The notes beneath the pieces were generated by a model, which had not been told where the DNA came from, did not search any database, and saw only the letters and a list, made by a program, of their open reading frames with translations. This document shows positions 252 through 8,729 of a stretch of DNA of 8,729 nt, one piece after another (the first letter of the stretch is position 1; each line of letters begins with the position of its first letter). The translations under genes and the position numbers were made by a program. Source of the stretch: a virus (Duplodnaviria; Heunggongvirae; Uroviricota; Caudoviricetes); IMG/VR virus record IMGVR_UViG_2645727555_000021; one strand, written 5' to 3'.

Positions 252-1949
252 TCACTTTTTTTCGTTAACCTTGCCTGTCAGCATGTCGATAGCACCTTCT
301 TTGGCACGAGTCAGACGCAGGCGGGTGAAGTAGTTTTCACCGTTGCGAGGATGTACTTCGTTGATGGCACTGCCCCAGAGAGTGGTACGGTTAACGAGAG
401 ACGGATTGGTTTCGTGCACGTAAGGGATTGCTGGGACTGCATCACCAGCAATCAGACCGGCTTTACCGATGCCTTCGCCACGCCCATAGAAGAAGATGTC
501 ATCCAGCCCGAAGTCATATCCCTGTGCCTGGAATTGCTCACAGACAGGTTGCGGCACTTCGTAAATACGAATCGTGCCAAACAGGGTGCCGATGTACTGT
601 ACATACGGCGACTGAACGTAACCTGGTGCGATCTGGAAGTGCTGTGGAGGCAGAGAGCGCAGGAAGTTCGCGGCGTCACCACCAGCAAAGCCGCCACGAA
701 TACCCGTTGTCAGGGTACGATTTGCCATTTCTTGAGACAGAGCGTTTACTACGTGACGCAGGAGGCCGACCCAGGACTCATAGTTTTGAGCTTCCGGCAG
801 AGCCACATCAAATTCACGACCATAAACGGTATGGAATACCAGGGTGCGCAGACGCATGATGTCGGTTTCATGGGAGATCCAGTTACGCATCGCGGAGAAC
901 TGAAGTGCCGCTAATTCAAGGCCGTGCTCACGGCTTAAATCGGATGCGGACATTACCGTGTGTTCGGAAGCAATTACGTACTGGGACGGACGAACTTCGT
1001 ACTTACGCATAGCCTGGTTGATCACCGGAATCAGGCTTGGATTGCGCTCGATGTTAATTTCGACCTGAACAGCAATTTCAGTACCTTCTGGCGGAGCCTG
1101 GGTAAATGTAATGTCAATGACACCAGTGTCATAGGCAACTTTGGCAGTCGCTGAGAAAGCATTACCTTTGCTGTCTTTAGCATTGAAATAAAGGTTGCCA
1201 TCGCCGTCGTCAACTTTGGACGGTTTGCGGTTGATCAGCAGTTTGTTATAACCAGCGCGAAGCGGGCAGGATTGTCCCTCAAAATTTTTGATGTCGAACT
1301 GGAAGGTTTTGGTGCTGCCATCCCCTTTAGTGGAAAGGGTATACAGGCGCTTCATTTGAGAATAAACACCAGCTGACTGCATATTCAGTTCGTCACCTTG
1401 TTTGAAGGTGCCGAATTTTGTGCCTGCTACGTTGACCAGTTCATAAATATTTGACTCGTCACGATCACAAGGAACAAAAGTACAGGCATCACTGGTAGCA
1501 GCGCCCAGAGAGGCAGGCAGAATTAGAGCAGCATATTGAGCAACTTTCATTACGCCGTCAGAGCTACGCATTGATTGCGCGACAGACTCAAACATTGCCT
1601 TACCCGTGCCTTCATGGGTATCACTGGCACATTCAGTCATCAGGCGTTCAAGAGCCATGTGTGCGTTCGCCAGGATGTCACTTGCCGGGTAATGACCATG
1701 TTGACGTTTATACTCATGCAGAGACATAGCCCACCCACCAGTGATCTGACGAGCGACCTCTGGATTTACGCCTTCAAACATAGGCACTTTCTGGATTGCT
1801 TTATCCAGGTTTTCCATCATTACTGCCTGGTCAGCAATCATGTTGCCTGCTGCATCGGTGGTCGGATCGACGGTCATAGCCATGACGCTTGCCGCCCGAT
1901 TCATAATCTCGCGCTCGCGATCACGAGCTGGCTGAATGTTTTTATTCAC
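252..1949 (-). CDS. Hypothetical 565-aa protein, function unknown (possibly a virion structural protein; speculative)
   Basis: Long uninterrupted ORF with a GTG start at 1949 (translation begins NKNIQPA), with AGGG about 9 nt upstream. No Walker A, no transmembrane segment, no recognisable catalytic motif by eye. The antisense ORFs 219..914 and 428..859 have low-complexity, Arg/His/Cys-rich translations and are treated as shadows. Confidence 0.75.
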   Translation of the reverse strand: MNKNIQPARDREREIMNRAASVMAMTVDPTTDAAGNMIADQAVMMENLDKAIQKVPMFEGVNPEVARQITGGWAMSLHEYKRQHGHYPASDILANAHMALERLMTECASDTHEGTGKAMFESVAQSMRSSDGVMKVAQYAALILPASLGAATSDACTFVPCDRDESNIYELVNVAGTKFGTFKQGDELNMQSAGVYSQMKRLYTLSTKGDGSTKTFQFDIKNFEGQSCPLRAGYNKLLINRKPSKVDDGDGNLYFNAKDSKGNAFSATAKVAYDTGVIDITFTQAPPEGTEIAVQVEINIERNPSLIPVINQAMRKYEVRPSQYVIASEHTVMSASDLSREHGLELAALQFSAMRNWISHETDIMRLRTLVFHTVYGREFDVALPEAQNYESWVGLLRHVVNALSQEMANRTLTTGIRGGFAGGDAANFLRSLPPQHFQIAPGYVQSPYVQYIGTLFGTIRIYEVPQPVCEQFQAQGYDFGLDDIFFYGRGEGIGKAGLIAGDAVPAIPYVHETNPSLVNRTTLWGSAINEVHPRNGENYFTRLRLTRAKEGAIDMLTGKVNEKK

Positions 1950-2975: not shown

Positions 2976-3295
2976 TCCCCCTTCCCTTCCCAAATCTCCC
3001 TGTTTCTTTGGTTATTCAGTGCGTTTCGTTGGTTGCATTCGTCGATCGTGCTGAATAACTGTTCAGCGTATGTCGGATACTTGTTTAACAGCACTGGCGT
3101 GTCCTCTGGCACTAAACAAGGGGAGTAATCAATCAGATTTGCCTGCGGCTTGCTGGTGGCTTCTACGGTAATTTTCACTGGCACGCTGGTTGATGGCTTT
3201 TGCCCGTTCCCGCTGCATCCTGATAACGTCATCAGGCACACGCACATCGTTAATCCCAGCACGGCGTAACGCATTTTCAAGGCGAGTGATTTCAT
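2963..3295 (-). CDS. Outer-membrane lipoprotein, o-spanin (Rz1)-like
   Basis: N-terminus MKSLALKMRYAVLGLTMCVCLMTLSGC is a lipoprotein signal peptide with lipobox LSGC; the mature part is Pro/Ser/Thr-rich with extra Cys. GAGAGGAAAG lies immediately upstream of the ATG at 3295. The gene starts inside the 3' end of the upstream Rz-like gene in a different frame (overlap 3129-3295), matching the overlapped spanin architecture known for P2 lysB/lysC. Confidence 0.5.
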   Translation of the reverse strand: MKSLALKMRYAVLGLTMCVCLMTLSGCSGNGQKPSTSVPVKITVEATSKPQANLIDYSPCLVPEDTPVLLNKYPTYAEQLFSTIDECNQRNALNNQRNREIWEGKGDQGS

Positions 3296-3587
3296 TCTGG
3301 CTTTCCTCTCGTTGTTTGATTAGGTTGGCATTCAGTTCTGCTGTTTTGCGCTGGTACTCCTTTTCCAGTGCTTTAATTCTTTCGTTTTCGGTCAGCATGG
3401 CTGAGCGAGCGTTCTCACTTAACTGTAATGCGGTAGAAAGCGTGTTGTTCGTGCTTTCCAGTTGTGATTTTGAGTCTTCAAGCGATCGGACATACCTGAT
3501 GTGTTCGATAACTGCCGTCGTTGTTCGGTAAATTCCAGAAATGGCTAAAAGCGCAATTACAATCAAAATTATCTTTTTCAAAACCAT
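3129..3587 (-). CDS. Bitopic inner-membrane coiled-coil protein, i-spanin (Rz)-like
   Basis: The ORF is open to 3602, but the ATG at 3585-3587 (MVLKKIILIVIALLAISG...) is directly preceded by GGAGAGG, whereas the ATG at 3602 has no SD. One N-terminal transmembrane helix, then a long charged coiled-coil-like region (EKEYQRKTAELNANLIKQREESQNEITRLENALRRAG). Its C-terminal region overlaps the lipoprotein gene. Confidence 0.55.
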   Translation of the reverse strand: MVLKKIILIVIALLAISGIYRTTTAVIEHIRYVRSLEDSKSQLESTNNTLSTALQLSENARSAMLTENERIKALEKEYQRKTAELNANLIKQREESQNEITRLENALRRAGINDVRVPDDVIRMQRERAKAINQRASENYRRSHQQAAGKSD

Positions 3588-3658
3588 CCTCTCCAGGTTC
3601 ATTTTTTGGTGTTAAACATGTACCAATTTACATCCTTTTGTGTGCCTAAGTGGTGCTT

Positions 3659-4465
3659 CTATGATTCCTTTTTGGTGTTCTTTTGGAGCGCATCGATAAC
3701 GCCTTGTGGCATGATTAAACTGATTGCCGGACTCATTACTGCATCATCCAGTAGAGAACCAGTTAACGTGATGGCGACAGCGTTCTCTAAACCTTTGGTT
3801 GCCTGAGTGGTTGACGTTTTAATGCGACCTGTAAGGGCTACGACACCCTCACTTGCTGAGTTAATTTCGGAGAGTAAAACTTCGGCGGCTGTCACTGCTT
3901 CCCGTAAAGCATCAATTTCATCCTGAGTAATGACTGGAGCCTGAGCGCCCCCAGCACCACCCTGTCCACCATTGCTTTCACCACCACCAGCACTTCCGGC
4001 AGCTTCAATTTTTGCGTTAATGGCGTTCATGGCGGTTTTCAGAGCATCAAGTTTTAGCGCCGTCAATGCGTCCGTTAGAGATTGCGGAATGGAAACATTC
4101 CCCATTCCCTCAACAAGGGCGAAAGCAGGTATGGGGGTCAGCTCGTTACCTTTTGCGTAGCATTCCCAGCCAATCTTCATCTGTAACAACTCTGATGGCT
4201 TGGTGTATGGGGAAAGAGAATCAGCCAGTAATGAAGACGCTTTGCTGGCCTCATTGAGCTGTTCAGAAAAGCCAAGCAATTGAGTAGTCCAGGCCGAAAC
4301 AGAATCAGGATAGGTTTTATCGGCGTGAACTATTCCCTGTATGGCGCTGGCGAGCGATGAGGCTTTTACAGAAGCTGCCCGGCTTATGGTTATAGATTCT
4401 GGTGTAGAGATACCGGCATCTGACAGAATTTTGAAGGCTTTAACTTCACCTATTGAATCAAGCAT
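3659..4465 (-). CDS. Hypothetical 268-aa Ala/Ser/Gly-rich soluble protein, translationally coupled to the PAAR-like gene
   Basis: The ORF extends upstream to 4564, but its in-frame ATG at 4463-4465 overlaps the PAAR stop (TAATG on the coding strand); the first 33 codons of the longer ORF are shadow of the PAAR gene. Contains a low-complexity linker AAGSAGGGESNGGQGGAGGAQAP between helical Ala-rich halves. No transmembrane segment and no catalytic motif seen. Confidence 0.65.
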   Translation of the reverse strand: MLDSIGEVKAFKILSDAGISTPESITISRAASVKASSLASAIQGIVHADKTYPDSVSAWTTQLLGFSEQLNEASKASSLLADSLSPYTKPSELLQMKIGWECYAKGNELTPIPAFALVEGMGNVSIPQSLTDALTALKLDALKTAMNAINAKIEAAGSAGGGESNGGQGGAGGAQAPVITQDEIDALREAVTAAEVLLSEINSASEGVVALTGRIKTSTTQATKGLENAVAITLTGSLLDDAVMSPAISLIMPQGVIDALQKNTKKES

Positions 4466-4749
4466 TATGCAACCTGAAAAATATCCTCGCCGTTGGCGAT
4501 AACAGAACCACAAGAAAGCGGATCGCCTACACAGACAACTCCCTTTCCACCTATCGAAAACCATACTCGCGTCGATACAGCTGCCCCTGGATGTGCACTG
4601 TTACCGTCAGTGTGACTGGGAAACATGGCACCATCTACAACAACTGGCTTACCGTTAACGGTGAACCAGGGAACGGTTTCTGCTACCAGTCGCGGCGGAA
4701 ATCCTCCGTGACCAGAACAAAGGGTGTCGCTGGTGGCTATTGCGCTCAT
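4465..4749 (-). CDS. PAAR-repeat-like protein (94 aa)
   Basis: ATG at 4747-4749 with AGGAGG 6 nt upstream. Translation shows three repeats of the PAAR type: LCSGHGG, WFTVNGKPVVVDGA and VWFSIGGKGVVCVGD. Size and repeat pattern match PAAR spike-tip proteins of T6SS and T4 gp5.4; assignment is by eye, not alignment. Confidence 0.6.
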   Translation of the reverse strand: MSAIATSDTLCSGHGGFPPRLVAETVPWFTVNGKPVVVDGAMFPSHTDGNSAHPGAAVSTRVWFSIGGKGVVCVGDPLSCGSVIANGEDIFQVA

Positions 4750-4834
4750 TCTTCACCTCCTGGTTATCCTCCTATTGTCATCACTTTGTTATTTCGTCAT
4801 TCAAACGGAGAGTTAAATTTCGGAATATTTTTGT

Positions 4835-4990
4835 ATTCTCAATTCATTCTCAAATAAATCTCACTATCAGACCATCATTCAGTGAGTGATTAAGATATTC
4901 TCAAAATAAACTCAACAAGCGCTCTTTTTTATCTCGTTTGGTGTGGATTTTTGGGTGCTTCTCTTTTAAAATTACATTTTAATTCTCAAA
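4835..4990. repeat. parC-like centromere/operator iterons upstream of parM
   Basis: Four exact copies of ATTCTCAA at 4835-4842, 4846-4853, 4897-4904 and 4982-4989. Degenerate copies sit 11 bp after the second and third (AAATCTCA at 4857, AAACTCAA at 4908), giving two phased runs of three with 11-bp spacing, as in R1 parC. The array lies in the divergent region between the PAAR-operon start and parM. Confidence 0.45.
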
Positions 4991-5015
4991 TGTGTCTCAG
5001 AAGTGGAGCAAGAAG

Positions 5016-5972
5016 ATGCGCATTTTTATCGATGATGGTTCAACCAATATCAAAATGCTGTGGGAGCACGACGGGGAAACTCGCACTCACATCAGCCCTA
5101 ACAGCTTTAAGCGCGGATGGTCAGCAACATTTGGTGCGGGCAAGCCGTTTAACTATGTCATTGACGACGAAAAGTATTCATACGACTTGATATCGCCAGA
5201 TGTTCTGCCGACGAATAATGTGGAATGGCAATACAGCCCGCTTAACGTCCTGGCTGTTCACCATGCCCTGCTGACAAGTGGCATTGAGCCGCAGGAAGTA
5301 GAAATTGTGGTCACGCTGCCTCTGGCGGAGTTTTACGACGACGACGCGCAATACAATCTCGATAACATCGAGCGCAAGAAAGCCAGTCTTATGCGCCCCG
5401 TCACGCTGAATAAAGGCAATGTGTTCACGATTAAGAAAGTTACGGTACGACCGGAGTCTATTCCGGCAGGAATTGGCCTGTGCGACAATCTGAACCCTGC
5501 CCATTCTGTTCTTATCGTCGATTTGGGTGGAACTACCCTTGATGTTTCAATGGTCGCCGGGCAAATGACGGCAGTTTCCCGTGTTTTTGGCGATTCGAAT
5601 CTTGGTGTATCACTGGTCACCAGGGAAGTAAGGCAAGCACTTGCAAGGGCCAATACCGAAACGTCAAATTACAATGTTGATCAGCTCATTATTAACCGCC
5701 ACGATGAAGATTATCTGAACGACAATATCAATGACCCATCAGCGATTGGTGATGTGAAAAAGGCCATTGCCGCAAGCATTGACCGTCTGCGTACCCGCGT
5801 TCTTGATGTGATTGGCGACTTTAAAGGATATACGCATGTCATGGTGATCGGTGGTGGCGCACCGCTGGTGGCAGATGCAATTCGCGAGCAAGTTAATATT
5901 CGTGATGACCGTTTCTTCGTGGCGGATGACCCGCAACTTGCTCTTGTTCATGGCCTGAAAGCAATCGGTTAA
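5016..5972 (+). CDS. parM: Type II partition actin-like ATPase ParM (StbA)
   Basis: The N-terminus MRIFIDDGSTNIKMLWEHDGETRTHISPNSFKRGW closely follows the R1 ParM N-terminus (MLVFIDDGSTNIK...HISPNSFKREW) as I recall it, and the motif NVLAVHHALLTSG is also shared. GGAG lies 7 nt before the ATG at 5016; the tracked ORF start at 4992 is a GTG extension without an SD. 318 aa. Confidence 0.9.
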   Translation: MRIFIDDGSTNIKMLWEHDGETRTHISPNSFKRGWSATFGAGKPFNYVIDDEKYSYDLISPDVLPTNNVEWQYSPLNVLAVHHALLTSGIEPQEVEIVVTLPLAEFYDDDAQYNLDNIERKKASLMRPVTLNKGNVFTIKKVTVRPESIPAGIGLCDNLNPAHSVLIVDLGGTTLDVSMVAGQMTAVSRVFGDSNLGVSLVTREVRQALARANTETSNYNVDQLIINRHDEDYLNDNINDPSAIGDVKKAIAASIDRLRTRVLDVIGDFKGYTHVMVIGGGAPLVADAIREQVNIRDDRFFVADDPQLALVHGLKAIG

Positions 5973-5979
5973 CGAGGTA

Positions 5980-6324
5980 ATGTCCATGTCTCAGGAACGT
6001 AAGAAAGTGATGATTTATCTTCGCCCAGAGGCTTATGCCAATGAAAAGGCGGCGAGCGAGAAGATAAAAAAACATAGCGATATGGCAAGAACCGCATTGT
6101 TGGCAGGGCTTGCGCTGGGAGAAGTCGATAGCAGGCTTCCAGGATTACTGGCTTCCCTGCTGACCGAAGACAATAACCCGGAGCTGATCCGAAAAATGCT
6201 GGCATCCTTCCTGGAACTACCAGCTGCGGTTGAGGAGCGCCCTGCCTCCATTGAGCCAGTGAAGGAGCAAGTTGTTGCCAAAAGCGCGTCGGCGCGCAAT
6301 CTGGCTGACTCTCTACCTGATTGA
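5980..6324 (+). CDS. parR: Type II partition adaptor ParR (StbB)-like DNA-binding protein
   Basis: It lies 8 nt after the parM stop, is of ParR size, and the segment ARTALLAGLALGE resembles RAALTAGLALY of R1 ParR from memory. The start may be the ATG at 5986 rather than 5980, because GAGG at 5974-5977 is better spaced for it. Confidence 0.75.
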   Translation: MSMSQERKKVMIYLRPEAYANEKAASEKIKKHSDMARTALLAGLALGEVDSRLPGLLASLLTEDNNPELIRKMLASFLELPAAVEERPASIEPVKEQVVAKSASARNLADSLPD

Positions 6325-6342
6325 CAGAAAATGTGCTGGTTT

Positions 6343-6367
6343 AAGGCTGCAAATTGCAGCCTTTTTT
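6343..6367 (+). terminator. Rho-independent terminator of the parMR operon
   Basis: Perfect 9-bp stem AAGGCTGCA (6343-6351) / TGCAGCCTT (6355-6363) with a 3-nt loop, running into a T-run that ends at 6367; it lies 19 nt after the parR stop. Confidence 0.7.
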
Positions 6368-6395
6368 ATGCCTTAATGGTGTCTAATTGGTGTTA

Positions 6396-6578
6396 ATCTG
6401 GAACCAGTTAGGTGCTGTTATGATGCAATTTTGTATCTGGTTCCAATTTGGGGCTGATTTCGTGTTAAATAGGATGCAATATAAGGTGTATTTGGTCTGA
6501 TTGATGTTATACTTTGCCAAACATTCATGACTCCATTATAGAGCCTGTCCCGCATCAAGAAGGCTCTTATCTGGAACC
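6396..6578. repeat. Repeated ATCTGG(A/T)(A/T)CC motifs upstream of parA; candidate partition site or operator
   Basis: ATCTGGAACC at 6396-6405 and 6569-6578, and ATCTGGTTCC at 6435-6444. Also ATGCAAT at 6423-6429 and 6474-6480, and AATGGTGT / AATTGGTGT at 6375-6390. The last copy sits in the leader between the putative promoter and the parA RBS. Confidence 0.4.
6505..6513 (+). promoter_or_regulatory. Putative extended -10 promoter for the parA operon
   Basis: TGtTATACT at 6505-6513 matches the extended -10 form TGnTATAAT. No good -35 is present. It lies about 100 nt upstream of the parA ATG. Prediction by eye only. Confidence 0.3.
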
Positions 6579-6611
6579 GTTTTGATACCAAAATCACACC
6601 GAGGAACGGAT

Positions 6612-7253
6612 ATGATTATATTGGTAGTCAGCCAAAAAGGTGGCTGTGGAAAATCAACCACAAGCGTAAACATCTGTGCGGAGCTTGCCCGCGCAAATAA
6701 GGATGTAGTGTTACTAGATGCAGACAAGCAAGGAACAGCTGCCCGCTGGGCAGCTGACCGTAACACGGCAGAGGTTTCTCCTGTTATTCATTGTGTCCAG
6801 AAGTTTGGTAATATTCGAGAAACACTTCTCGATCTGGATAAGCGTTATGAATTTGTTGTTGTTGATACAGCCGGGCGCGATAGCAAAGAGATGCGTACAG
6901 GCATAACCGCTGCAGATATTGTGTTGGTCCCATTCAGACCATCTCAACCAGATTTAGACACGCTGGCACACTTTGTTGAAGTGTTTGAAGAGGCTTTGGA
7001 CCTGATGCCTAATCCTAGCATTAAGGCGTTCGCAGTCTTAACAATGGCCCCATCCAATCCGGTTGTGAATGAAACCAATGAGGCCAAAGAGTACCTGGCT
7101 GAATATCCGCAACTGAAGTTGCTGAAAACCATCATTCGTGATCGTAAGGTTTACCGTGATTGCATGGCTGAAGGGAAGGGCGTTGTTGAGATGGACAACG
7201 GGAAAGCTAAAGGTGAAATCCAGATGTTGGTTAAGGAGTTATTAAGTGATTAA
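6612..7253 (+). CDS. parA: Type Ib partition ATPase, small ParA/ParF-like (213 aa)
   Basis: The N-terminus MIILVVSQKGGCGKSTT is the deviant Walker A (KGGxGKT/S) of ParA/MinD ATPases. The C-terminus (RKVYRDCMAEGKGVVEMDNGKAKGEIQMLVKELL) resembles ParF of TP228 from memory. GAGGAA lies 5 nt before the ATG at 6612; the tracked TTG start at 6582 is an unsupported extension. Confidence 0.85.
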   Translation: MIILVVSQKGGCGKSTTSVNICAELARANKDVVLLDADKQGTAARWAADRNTAEVSPVIHCVQKFGNIRETLLDLDKRYEFVVVDTAGRDSKEMRTGITAADIVLVPFRPSQPDLDTLAHFVEVFEEALDLMPNPSIKAFAVLTMAPSNPVVNETNEAKEYLAEYPQLKLLKTIIRDRKVYRDCMAEGKGVVEMDNGKAKGEIQMLVKELLSD

Positions 7254-7533: not shown

Positions 7534-7640
7534 AGTCTTTCAGGTTGGTTTTAGAACTTAAAAAGTCTTGAACCAAAGGTGCACCAATACACCACTAATT
7601 TGGTGTACCTTTACATCCTTTTTGGTTCCACTTGTGTACC
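7532..7640. repeat. Cluster of short repeats and a palindrome between parG-like and the glnS upstream region
   Basis: AAAGTCTT at 7532-7539 and 7562-7569; palindrome GGTGCACC at 7578-7585; GGTGTACC at 7602-7609 and TGTGTACC at 7633-7640; TGGTTCCA at 7623-7630, which echoes the ATCTGG(A/T)(A/T)CC motif upstream of parA. Confidence 0.3.
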
Positions 7641-7801
7641 ATTTTTCATTAATTTACTTATGCGCAAAAGTGGGCTTCATGAAAAAGCTCATTATTGAAA
7701 TAACGATAGAAAGCAATTTCTAATCAACTAGTGGTTGTCAGCCTATTCGGCTTATAAGATCATACGCTGTTATACGTTGTTTACGCTTTGAGGAATCCAC
7801 A

Positions 7802-8729
7802 ATGAGTGAGGCAGAAGCCCGCCCGACTAACTTTATTCGTCAGATCATCGATGAAGATCTGGCCAGTGGTAAGCACACCACAGTACATACCCGTTTCCCG
7901 CCGGAACCGAATGGCTATCTGCATATTGGTCATGCGAAATCTATCTGCCTGAACTTCGGGATCGCCCAGGACTATAAAGGCCAGTGCAACCTGCGTTTCG
8001 ACGACACTAACCCGGTAAAAGAAGATATCGAGTACGTCGAGTCGATTAAAAACGACGTTGAATGGTTAGGTTTTCACTGGTCTGGCAACATCCGTTACTC
8101 CTCCGATTATTTTGACAAACTCCATGCCTATGCTGTTGAACTGATCAACAAAGGACTGGCGTATGTTGACGAACTGACGCCGGAACAGATCCGCGAATAC
8201 CGCGGCACCCTGACGCAGCCGGGTAAAAACAGCCCGTACCGCGACCGCAGCGTTGAAGAGAACCTGGCGCTGTTCGAAAAAATGCGTGCCGGTGGTTTTG
8301 AAGAAGGTAAAGCCTGCCTGCGTGCGAAAATCGACATGGCTTCGCCGTTTATCGTGATGCGCGACCCGGTGCTGTACCGTATTAAGTTTGCTGAACACCA
8401 CCAGACTGGCAACAAGTGGTGCATCTACCCGATGTACGACTTCACCCACTGCATCAGCGATGCGCTGGAAGGTATTACGCACTCTCTGTGTACGCTTGAG
8501 TTCCAGGACAACCGTCGTCTGTATGACTGGGTACTGGACAACATCACCATTCCTGTTCATCCGCGCCAGTACGAATTCTCGCGCCTGAATCTGGAATACA
8601 CCGTGATGTCCAAGCGTAAGCTGAACCAGCTGGTAACCGACAAGCACGTTGAAGGCTGGGATGACCCGCGTATGCCGACCATTTCCGGTCTGCGTCGTCG
8701 TGGTTACACTGCTGCTTCTATTCGTGAGT
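7802..8729 (+). CDS. glnS: Glutaminyl-tRNA synthetase, N-terminal 309 codons (3' partial, continues beyond the window)
   Basis: The translation [53 protein letters not shown]... carries the class I HIGH motif (HIGH) and VMSKR (KMSK motif) and matches E. coli GlnRS from memory, with a few substitutions. GAGG lies about 8 nt before the ATG. The ORF track missed it because it runs off the window; the antisense ORFs 8066..8647 and 8128..8424 are shadows. Confidence 0.96.

Follow-up and report, generated by a model that had tools for sequence, protein, structure and literature searches.

Candidate ParMR centromere and adjacent predicted late promoter between parM and the upfC-like operon of a D6-like phage-plasmid

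A partition operon and a leftward operon headed by a gene for a PAAR protein diverge from one short spacer in the viral DNA analyzed here, a stretch of 8,729 nucleotides (8.7 kb) that is called the window throughout. The spacer holds an array of short direct repeats in front of parM. Two questions arise from this arrangement. Is the array the centromere of the partition system, and does the protein complex that would assemble on it also control the divergent PAAR operon? An earlier note, made from the letters of the sequence, had suggested both.

Escherichia phage D6, a plasmid prophage of the P1-like kind, matches the window at 99% identity. The 2-kb stretch that was searched, positions 4400-6400, is 100% identical to the E. 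coli plasmid CP058021. Of 72,556 plasmid records in PLSDB, 113 contain at least 80% of the region, and the host family consists of ~90-kb non-mobilizable plasmids from E. coli, Salmonella, and Shigella. On these matches, the window comes from a D6-like phage-plasmid of E. coli. The gene order was taken from the GenBank and RefSeq annotation together with our own scans of the window, and the coordinates are given in Table 1. The annotation of D6 includes a small ORF, orf54, which overlaps the 3' end of the spanin gene. The phage-borne glnS at the right end is an unusual cargo for a phage-plasmid. Three terminator-like sites were found in 6300-6600, where 0.1 were expected.

Table 1. Genes and predicted elements of the 8.7-kb window, in order of position
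Feature	Position	Strand	Remarks
P1 gp23-like capsid gene	252-1949	(-)	
Two small ORFs	between capsid and spanin genes	(+)	
Rz-like spanin gene	3129-3602	(-)	phrog_214, 9.8e-16; final sizeable gene in the PAAR operon
upfB-like gene	3659-4465	(-)	upfB homology
PAAR/upfC-like gene	4465-4749	(-)	57% identity to P1 UpfC; Pfam PAAR_motif
Spacer, 266 bp	4750-5015		between the PAAR gene and parM
Lpa-type late promoter predicted for the PAAR (upfC) operon	4774-4794	(-)	AAATAACA-AAGTGAT-GACAAT; predicted TSS near 4767; SD AGGAGG at 4761-4756
Distal parC iteron cluster (predicted)	4832-4864	(+)	three units, TGTATTCTCAA, TTCATTCTCAA, ATAAATCTCAC, at 4832-42, 4843-53, 4854-64
Middle parC iteron cluster (predicted)	4894-4937	(+)	good units GATATTCTCAA, AATAAACTCAA at 4894-4904, 4905-15; degenerate in-phase units CAAGCGCTCTT, TTTTATCTCGT at 4916-26 (CTCT), 4927-37 (CTCG)
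Predicted sigma-70 parMR promoter	4944-4972	(+)	TGGATT-17 nt-TAAAAT; read from sequence
Proximal parC iteron cluster (predicted)	4979-5000	(+)	two units, TTAATTCTCAA, ATGTGTCTCAG, at 4979-89, 4990-5000
parM (stbA), actin-like partition ATPase	5016-5972	(+)	SD GGAG at 5005-5008
parR (stbB), ribbon-helix-helix (RHH) centromere-binding adaptor	5986-6324	(+)	alternative ATG at 5980
Intrinsic terminator closing the parMR operon	6343-6368	(+)	9-bp stem then T run; inverted repeat I4
ParA-like ATPase gene	6582-7253	(+)	
RHH-like gene, 95 aa	7246-7533	(+)	weak Arc/RHH match
glnS, 5' part, phage-borne glutaminyl-tRNA synthetase	7800-8729	(+)	right window end

The repeats were counted and compared with shuffled sequences. 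The exact sequence ATTCTCAA was found on the plus strand at 4835, 4846, 4897, and 4982, all within the spacer, and a further, unrelated copy lies on the minus strand at 1356. These five matches in the window compare with 0.46 expected, and none of 200 shuffles reached five. Within 4750-5015, seven CTCA cores form four pairs that are exactly 11 bp apart. When the core was widened to CTC[A/T/G], ten cores and six such pairs were found, and almost no core pairs appeared at the other lags from 4 to 33. The units, nine in all, are 11 bp long, have a (T)TCTCA(A) core, and form three clusters (3 + 4 + 2) that span 4832-5000, and the middle cluster ends immediately 5' of the predicted -35 of parMR.

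The earlier note had described iterons in an 11-bp phase that fill the spacer. The phased iterons are real: the 11-bp pairing was matched by none of 20,000 dinucleotide-preserving shuffles, in which the maximum was two pairs. The phase itself applies inside the clusters, and the register is lost between them, where the unit starts are offset by 40 and 52 bp. The array fills the spacer from 4832 to 5000. No iterons were found in the first 82 bp, 4750-4831, which contain the late-promoter element instead. An inverted repeat, CTCACT...AGTGAG, at 4860-4886 between the distal and the middle clusters was also considered, and it was rejected as a functional element because D6 itself and other relatives carry it in broken form.

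The two proteins encoded to the right of the array are partition proteins by homology. ParM matches the Pfam families StbA_N (1.7e-69) and ParM C-terminal domain (3.3e-55), and it is 54% identical to R1-type ParM over 319 aa. ParR matches Pfam Plasmid_stab_B (3.5e-11) and the partition protein family phrog_8671 (8.6e-60). It was also matched to the pB171 ParR structure 2JD3 (E=1.1e-6), and its identity to R1 ParR is 31%. The stop codon of parM and the start of parR are separated by 8-14 nt. An actin-like ParM, an RHH ParR directly downstream, and a repeat array at the promoter are the features of a type II (ParMRC) system, and all three are found at this locus.

We infer that TGGATT-17-TAAAAT is the parMR promoter. 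It sits in a 41-bp iteron-free gap, 4938-4978, between the middle and the proximal clusters. The proximal iterons cover about +1 to +22 of this predicted promoter, which is an operator position. A strict sigma-70 consensus scan of 4650-5100 did not call it, and it has a weak -35 (3 of 6). The alignment of relatives, A1, comprises 10 sequences at a mean column identity of 72%; it shows no change in the TAAAAT, in the TGG of the -35, in the proximal iterons, or in the SD.

The array was then compared among relatives. In spacers that are 78-83% identical to that of the window, or alignable only near parM, the CTCA and CTCT cores stay 11-bp phased. The proximal cluster is present in all 10 aligned relatives, and the cores of the middle cluster are conserved. 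The D6-like relatives have the distal cluster, and so do non-phage parMR loci of Klebsiella and Providencia. Arrays of CTCA iterons in 11-bp phase also lie 5' of parM beside unrelated neighbors, which are melB in Klebsiella, umuD in Serratia, and DUF4942 on a Providencia plasmid. In a Serratia fonticola plasmid, 3+3 ATTGTTCTCAA units flank the parMR promoter. Two plasmids differ from their nearest relatives by an exact 11-nt insertion, which gives one extra distal unit in the first (L006:1548-1830) and a third proximal unit in the second (L007:1548-1830). The array is assigned to parMR because the same arrays occur beside unrelated neighbors and because the copy-number indels are exactly 11 nt long.

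Several individual loci deserve mention. Plasmids that are otherwise near-identical carry different numbers of iterons. The Salmonella plasmid pSa1423-160k (L013:1551-1824) has a decayed distal cluster and a proximal pair with a spacing of 13 bp. The ParR of Serratia fonticola pR28_180 (L019:1500-1795) is 24% identical to the window ParR, and its ATTGTTCTCAA iterons are nearly the same. The TCTCA core may be read by the N-terminal strand [KR]K[VI][ML]xYL that is common to the divergent ParR proteins. In Klebsiella pneumoniae (L012; CP125156.1, 261674-266759), the parM-parR cassette and the iteron array adjoin melB. CP125156.1 is a 5.37-Mb record listed as 'plasmid' in PLSDB, and the cassette looks chromosomal or integrated.

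The reading of 4832-5000 as the parC of the ParMR system, its centromere and operator, is supported by the R1-like layout and the homology of the two proteins, by the conservation of the cores and of the -35/-10, by the exact 11-nt indels, and by the co-occurrence with parMR in unrelated contexts. This reading is held with high confidence, and the suggestion of a centromere-like array that embeds the parMR promoter is borne out by the same evidence. The repeats could otherwise be replication iterons, sites of another protein such as Rep or a phage repressor, or functionless slippage repeats in AT-rich DNA. The spacer is AT-rich (33% GC), direct repeats in such DNA are common in plasmid origins, and the unit-length indel polymorphism is compatible with slippage too. 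However, repA of D6 is ~10 kb away and has its own tandem repeats beside it, and the arrays accompany parMR into plasmids and one chromosome with unrelated replicons. The iteron cores are kept while their flanks diverge and while ParR identity falls to 43-62%, and the 11-bp unit and the promoter-flanking layout are those of R1 parC (PMC2241845). An Rfam scan of the window found no family. We therefore consider it extremely unlikely that the repeats are something other than a ParR centromere.

If 4832-5000 is the parC, its function can be outlined as follows. ParR dimers would bind the nine 11-bp iterons cooperatively in three clusters. The ParR complex bound on the clusters that flank the promoter would repress parMR. 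As in plasmid R1, the same complex would cap the ParM filaments, and these would drive sister prophage-plasmids away from each other.

The leftward operon was analyzed by the same comparative approach. The P1 counterpart of the PAAR protein, UpfC, is the tip of the P1 baseplate needle according to a cryo-EM preprint (bioRxiv 10.1101/2025.07.21.665459). The operon starts with upfC, followed by the upfB-like gene and then by the Rz-like spanin gene. This mirrors the order upfC-upfB-ppfA-mlp in the P1 operon, in which mlp is an Rz-like spanin gene. By homology, the "PAAR operon" is a P1-type upfC (spike tip)-upfB-spanin late operon. Since virion and lysis genes are carried in it, late expression is to be expected.

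The P1 Lpa box, AAGTNACTT-N4-TANNNT, was searched for first as a known late-promoter element. It has one perfect match and four one-mismatch matches in the D6 genome, none of which is among the 12 late-promoter sites described below. It has no match in the spacer, and its matches in the window are at chance level. The D6 motif was therefore sought de novo by inspecting the regions upstream of late operons, and AAATCACA-N7-TAnnnT was found. A PWM was built from nine other D6 sites, with the PAAR site held out. On the D6 genome, scores of 18.1-26.3 are reached by 12 sites, followed by a next best of 13.2; the score of the held-out PAAR site is 18.2. All 12 sites are intergenic, correctly oriented, and 5' of structural or lysis genes. 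The genes behind them are R, mat, pmgB, prt, the orf16 hydrolase gene, gene 7, lydA, ddrB, gene 23, gene 26, darB, and upfC. A second copy of the motif in the window is located at 1999-2019 on the minus strand, 5' of the capsid gene, with a score of 19.2.

The predicted late promoter of the PAAR operon is conserved. The site is found in all PAAR-bearing relatives, the divergent versions of the E. marmotae type and of Enterobacter among them, with scores of 18.2-19.8, and by the PWM non-phage parMR loci do not have it. In A1 the block shows no variation, and it is the longest invariant block on the PAAR side. A candidate activator is encoded by orf4 of D6, which matches the Lpa-like activator family phrog_1704 (2.8e-60) and is 31% identical to P1 Lpa (E=1e-16). 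The D6 late sites are probably Lpa-dependent. This dependence is drawn by analogy because neither the sequence nor the spacing of the D6 box is that of the P1 box (AAGTGACTT-N4-TANNNT). During lytic growth, the D6 Lpa homologue would activate the promoter at 4774-4794 (-) through the AAATCACA-type box located 7 nt 5' of the -10. The promoter would then drive the operon for PAAR/UpfC (tail-spike tip), UpfB, and spanin.

With both elements located, the coupling of the two operons can be weighed. The earlier note had placed the ParR-parC complex on the promoter of the PAAR operon as well. The complex could control the PAAR/upfC operon through a sigma-70 promoter that overlaps the iterons, or through the nearby late promoter. 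Such control would make the expression of tail-spike and lysis genes depend on partition. For the sigma-70 route, the iterons read TTGAGA on the minus strand, which is 5 of 6 of TTGACA, and one sigma-70-like leftward match, TTGAGA-18-AATATT at 4853-4824, was found in a scan of 4650-5100. However, with 1 found and 1.0 expected, this match does not exceed chance, and its -10 varies among relatives: it is AACATT in L005, different in L008, and deleted in L009. The match was rejected as the operon promoter on these grounds, and the conserved, genome-specific predicted late promoter already explains leftward transcription. For the late-promoter route, only 37 bp separate the late-promoter box from the outermost (distal) iteron, and cross-talk between divergent operons is reportedly a property of parC1 in pB171's double par locus. 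Among relatives, however, this gap is 16, 36, 37, 47, 53, or 99 bp. The range from 16 to 99 bp and the decayed distal cluster in pSa1423-160k indicate that no geometry is conserved. The distal cluster is also present in loci without a PAAR gene (L012, L020), and in R1 the ParR protein is confined to the iterons (PMC2241845). Control of the PAAR/upfC operon by the ParR-parC complex is not supported with the predicted late promoter outside the array and the gap so variable, and we regard it as very unlikely.

An indirect effect may also be imagined, as a bulky or bent segrosome at this distance could influence the late promoter. The three-cluster segrosome would then serve as a boundary or silencer, by which the upfC-spanin operon is kept off in the plasmid state or tuned in lytic growth. 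If this were true, the phage-plasmid lifestyle would have given rise to a functional link of a plasmid centromere to phage morphogenesis or lysis genes. We hold this role to be highly improbable. The spacer is very probably composed of two independent cis-elements placed back to back, which are the parC at 4832-5000 and the late promoter at 4774-4794 (-). The late promoter stands outside the array and is most likely regulated independently of ParR. The idea of a spacer common to both promoters holds in that the same 266 bp contain the two; the elements themselves are adjacent and separable, without overlap.

A second partition module follows in tandem after the parMR terminator, with the ParA-like gene and the gene of the 95-aa protein. 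Exact palindromes, TGGAACCA/TGGTTCCA, are located upstream of this module at 6399 and 6438 and downstream of it at 7623. These palindromes could be type Ib centromere sites. Together, parMR and the second module would be a tandem double par locus.

These results have practical value, as they give coordinates for the unannotated ParMR centromere/operator of the widespread D6-like phage-plasmids. The (T)TCTCA(A) iteron class is common to several enterobacterial ParR lineages, and it is relevant to partition incompatibility. The analysis also provides a usable late-promoter motif for D6-type phages. No new mechanism emerges from the analysis.

Each of the elements has a known counterpart. P1 has 11 late promoters, which are activated by Lpa and combine a 9-bp box near -22 with a -10 (PMC10695390). 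The predicted D6 sites, 12 in number, resemble P1 late promoters such as LP23 and LPpac in having a conserved box centered near -22 and a TANNNT -10 without a -35, located before structural and lysis operons, and D6 encodes an Lpa homologue. The two boxes are related but distinct: in D6 the box is AAATCACA(A) and stands 7 nt from the -10, whereas the P1 box is AAGTGACTT or ATGTGACTT, placed 4 nt from the -10, with the consensus A[A/T]GTGACTT, a 9-bp inverted repeat. No annotated P1 late promoter was found in front of upfC.

The two par loci of plasmid pB171 are divergent, whereas the second par module of D6 stands in tandem after parMR. In pB171, ParMR is paired with a type Ib ParA system, as it probably is in D6. 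The central centromere region of pB171 is said to lie between the divergent operons and to mediate regulatory cross-talk. The divergent neighbor of the D6-like parC is a phage late operon, whereas that of the pB171 centromere is a partition operon. The ParR of pB171 par1 (parMRC), structure 2JD3, is the closest solved ParR to the window ParR, and pB171 ParR was reported to bind two 10-bp repeats (PMC9426499).

The closest parallel in layout is the parA locus of R1/NR1, the prototype of type II partition, where ParM is followed by a small ParR and 11-bp direct repeats lie 5' of parM, as in the window. The parC of R1 has two iteron sets, each with five 11-bp units, around a 39-bp promoter region; R1 ParR binds the iterons, represses the par promoter, and leaves the DNA between the iteron sets free (PMC2241845). 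As two iteron sets flank the promoter gap in R1, the centromere doubles as an operator, and the D6-like locus has the same layout, with a gap of 41 bp compared with 39 bp in R1. The differences lie in the repeats and in the host. The iterons are (T)TCTCA(A) in the D6-like locus and A/C-rich 11-bp repeats of the AAACCCA type in R1. The clusters are three (3+4+2) instead of 5+5, and the host is a P1/D6-type phage-plasmid. R1 ParR differs from the window-type ParR in the N-terminal beta-strand region, and the difference in the iterons matches this divergence of the proteins. The D6-like parC is almost certainly an ordinary, previously unannotated type II (R1-type) centromere with different iterons and three clusters.
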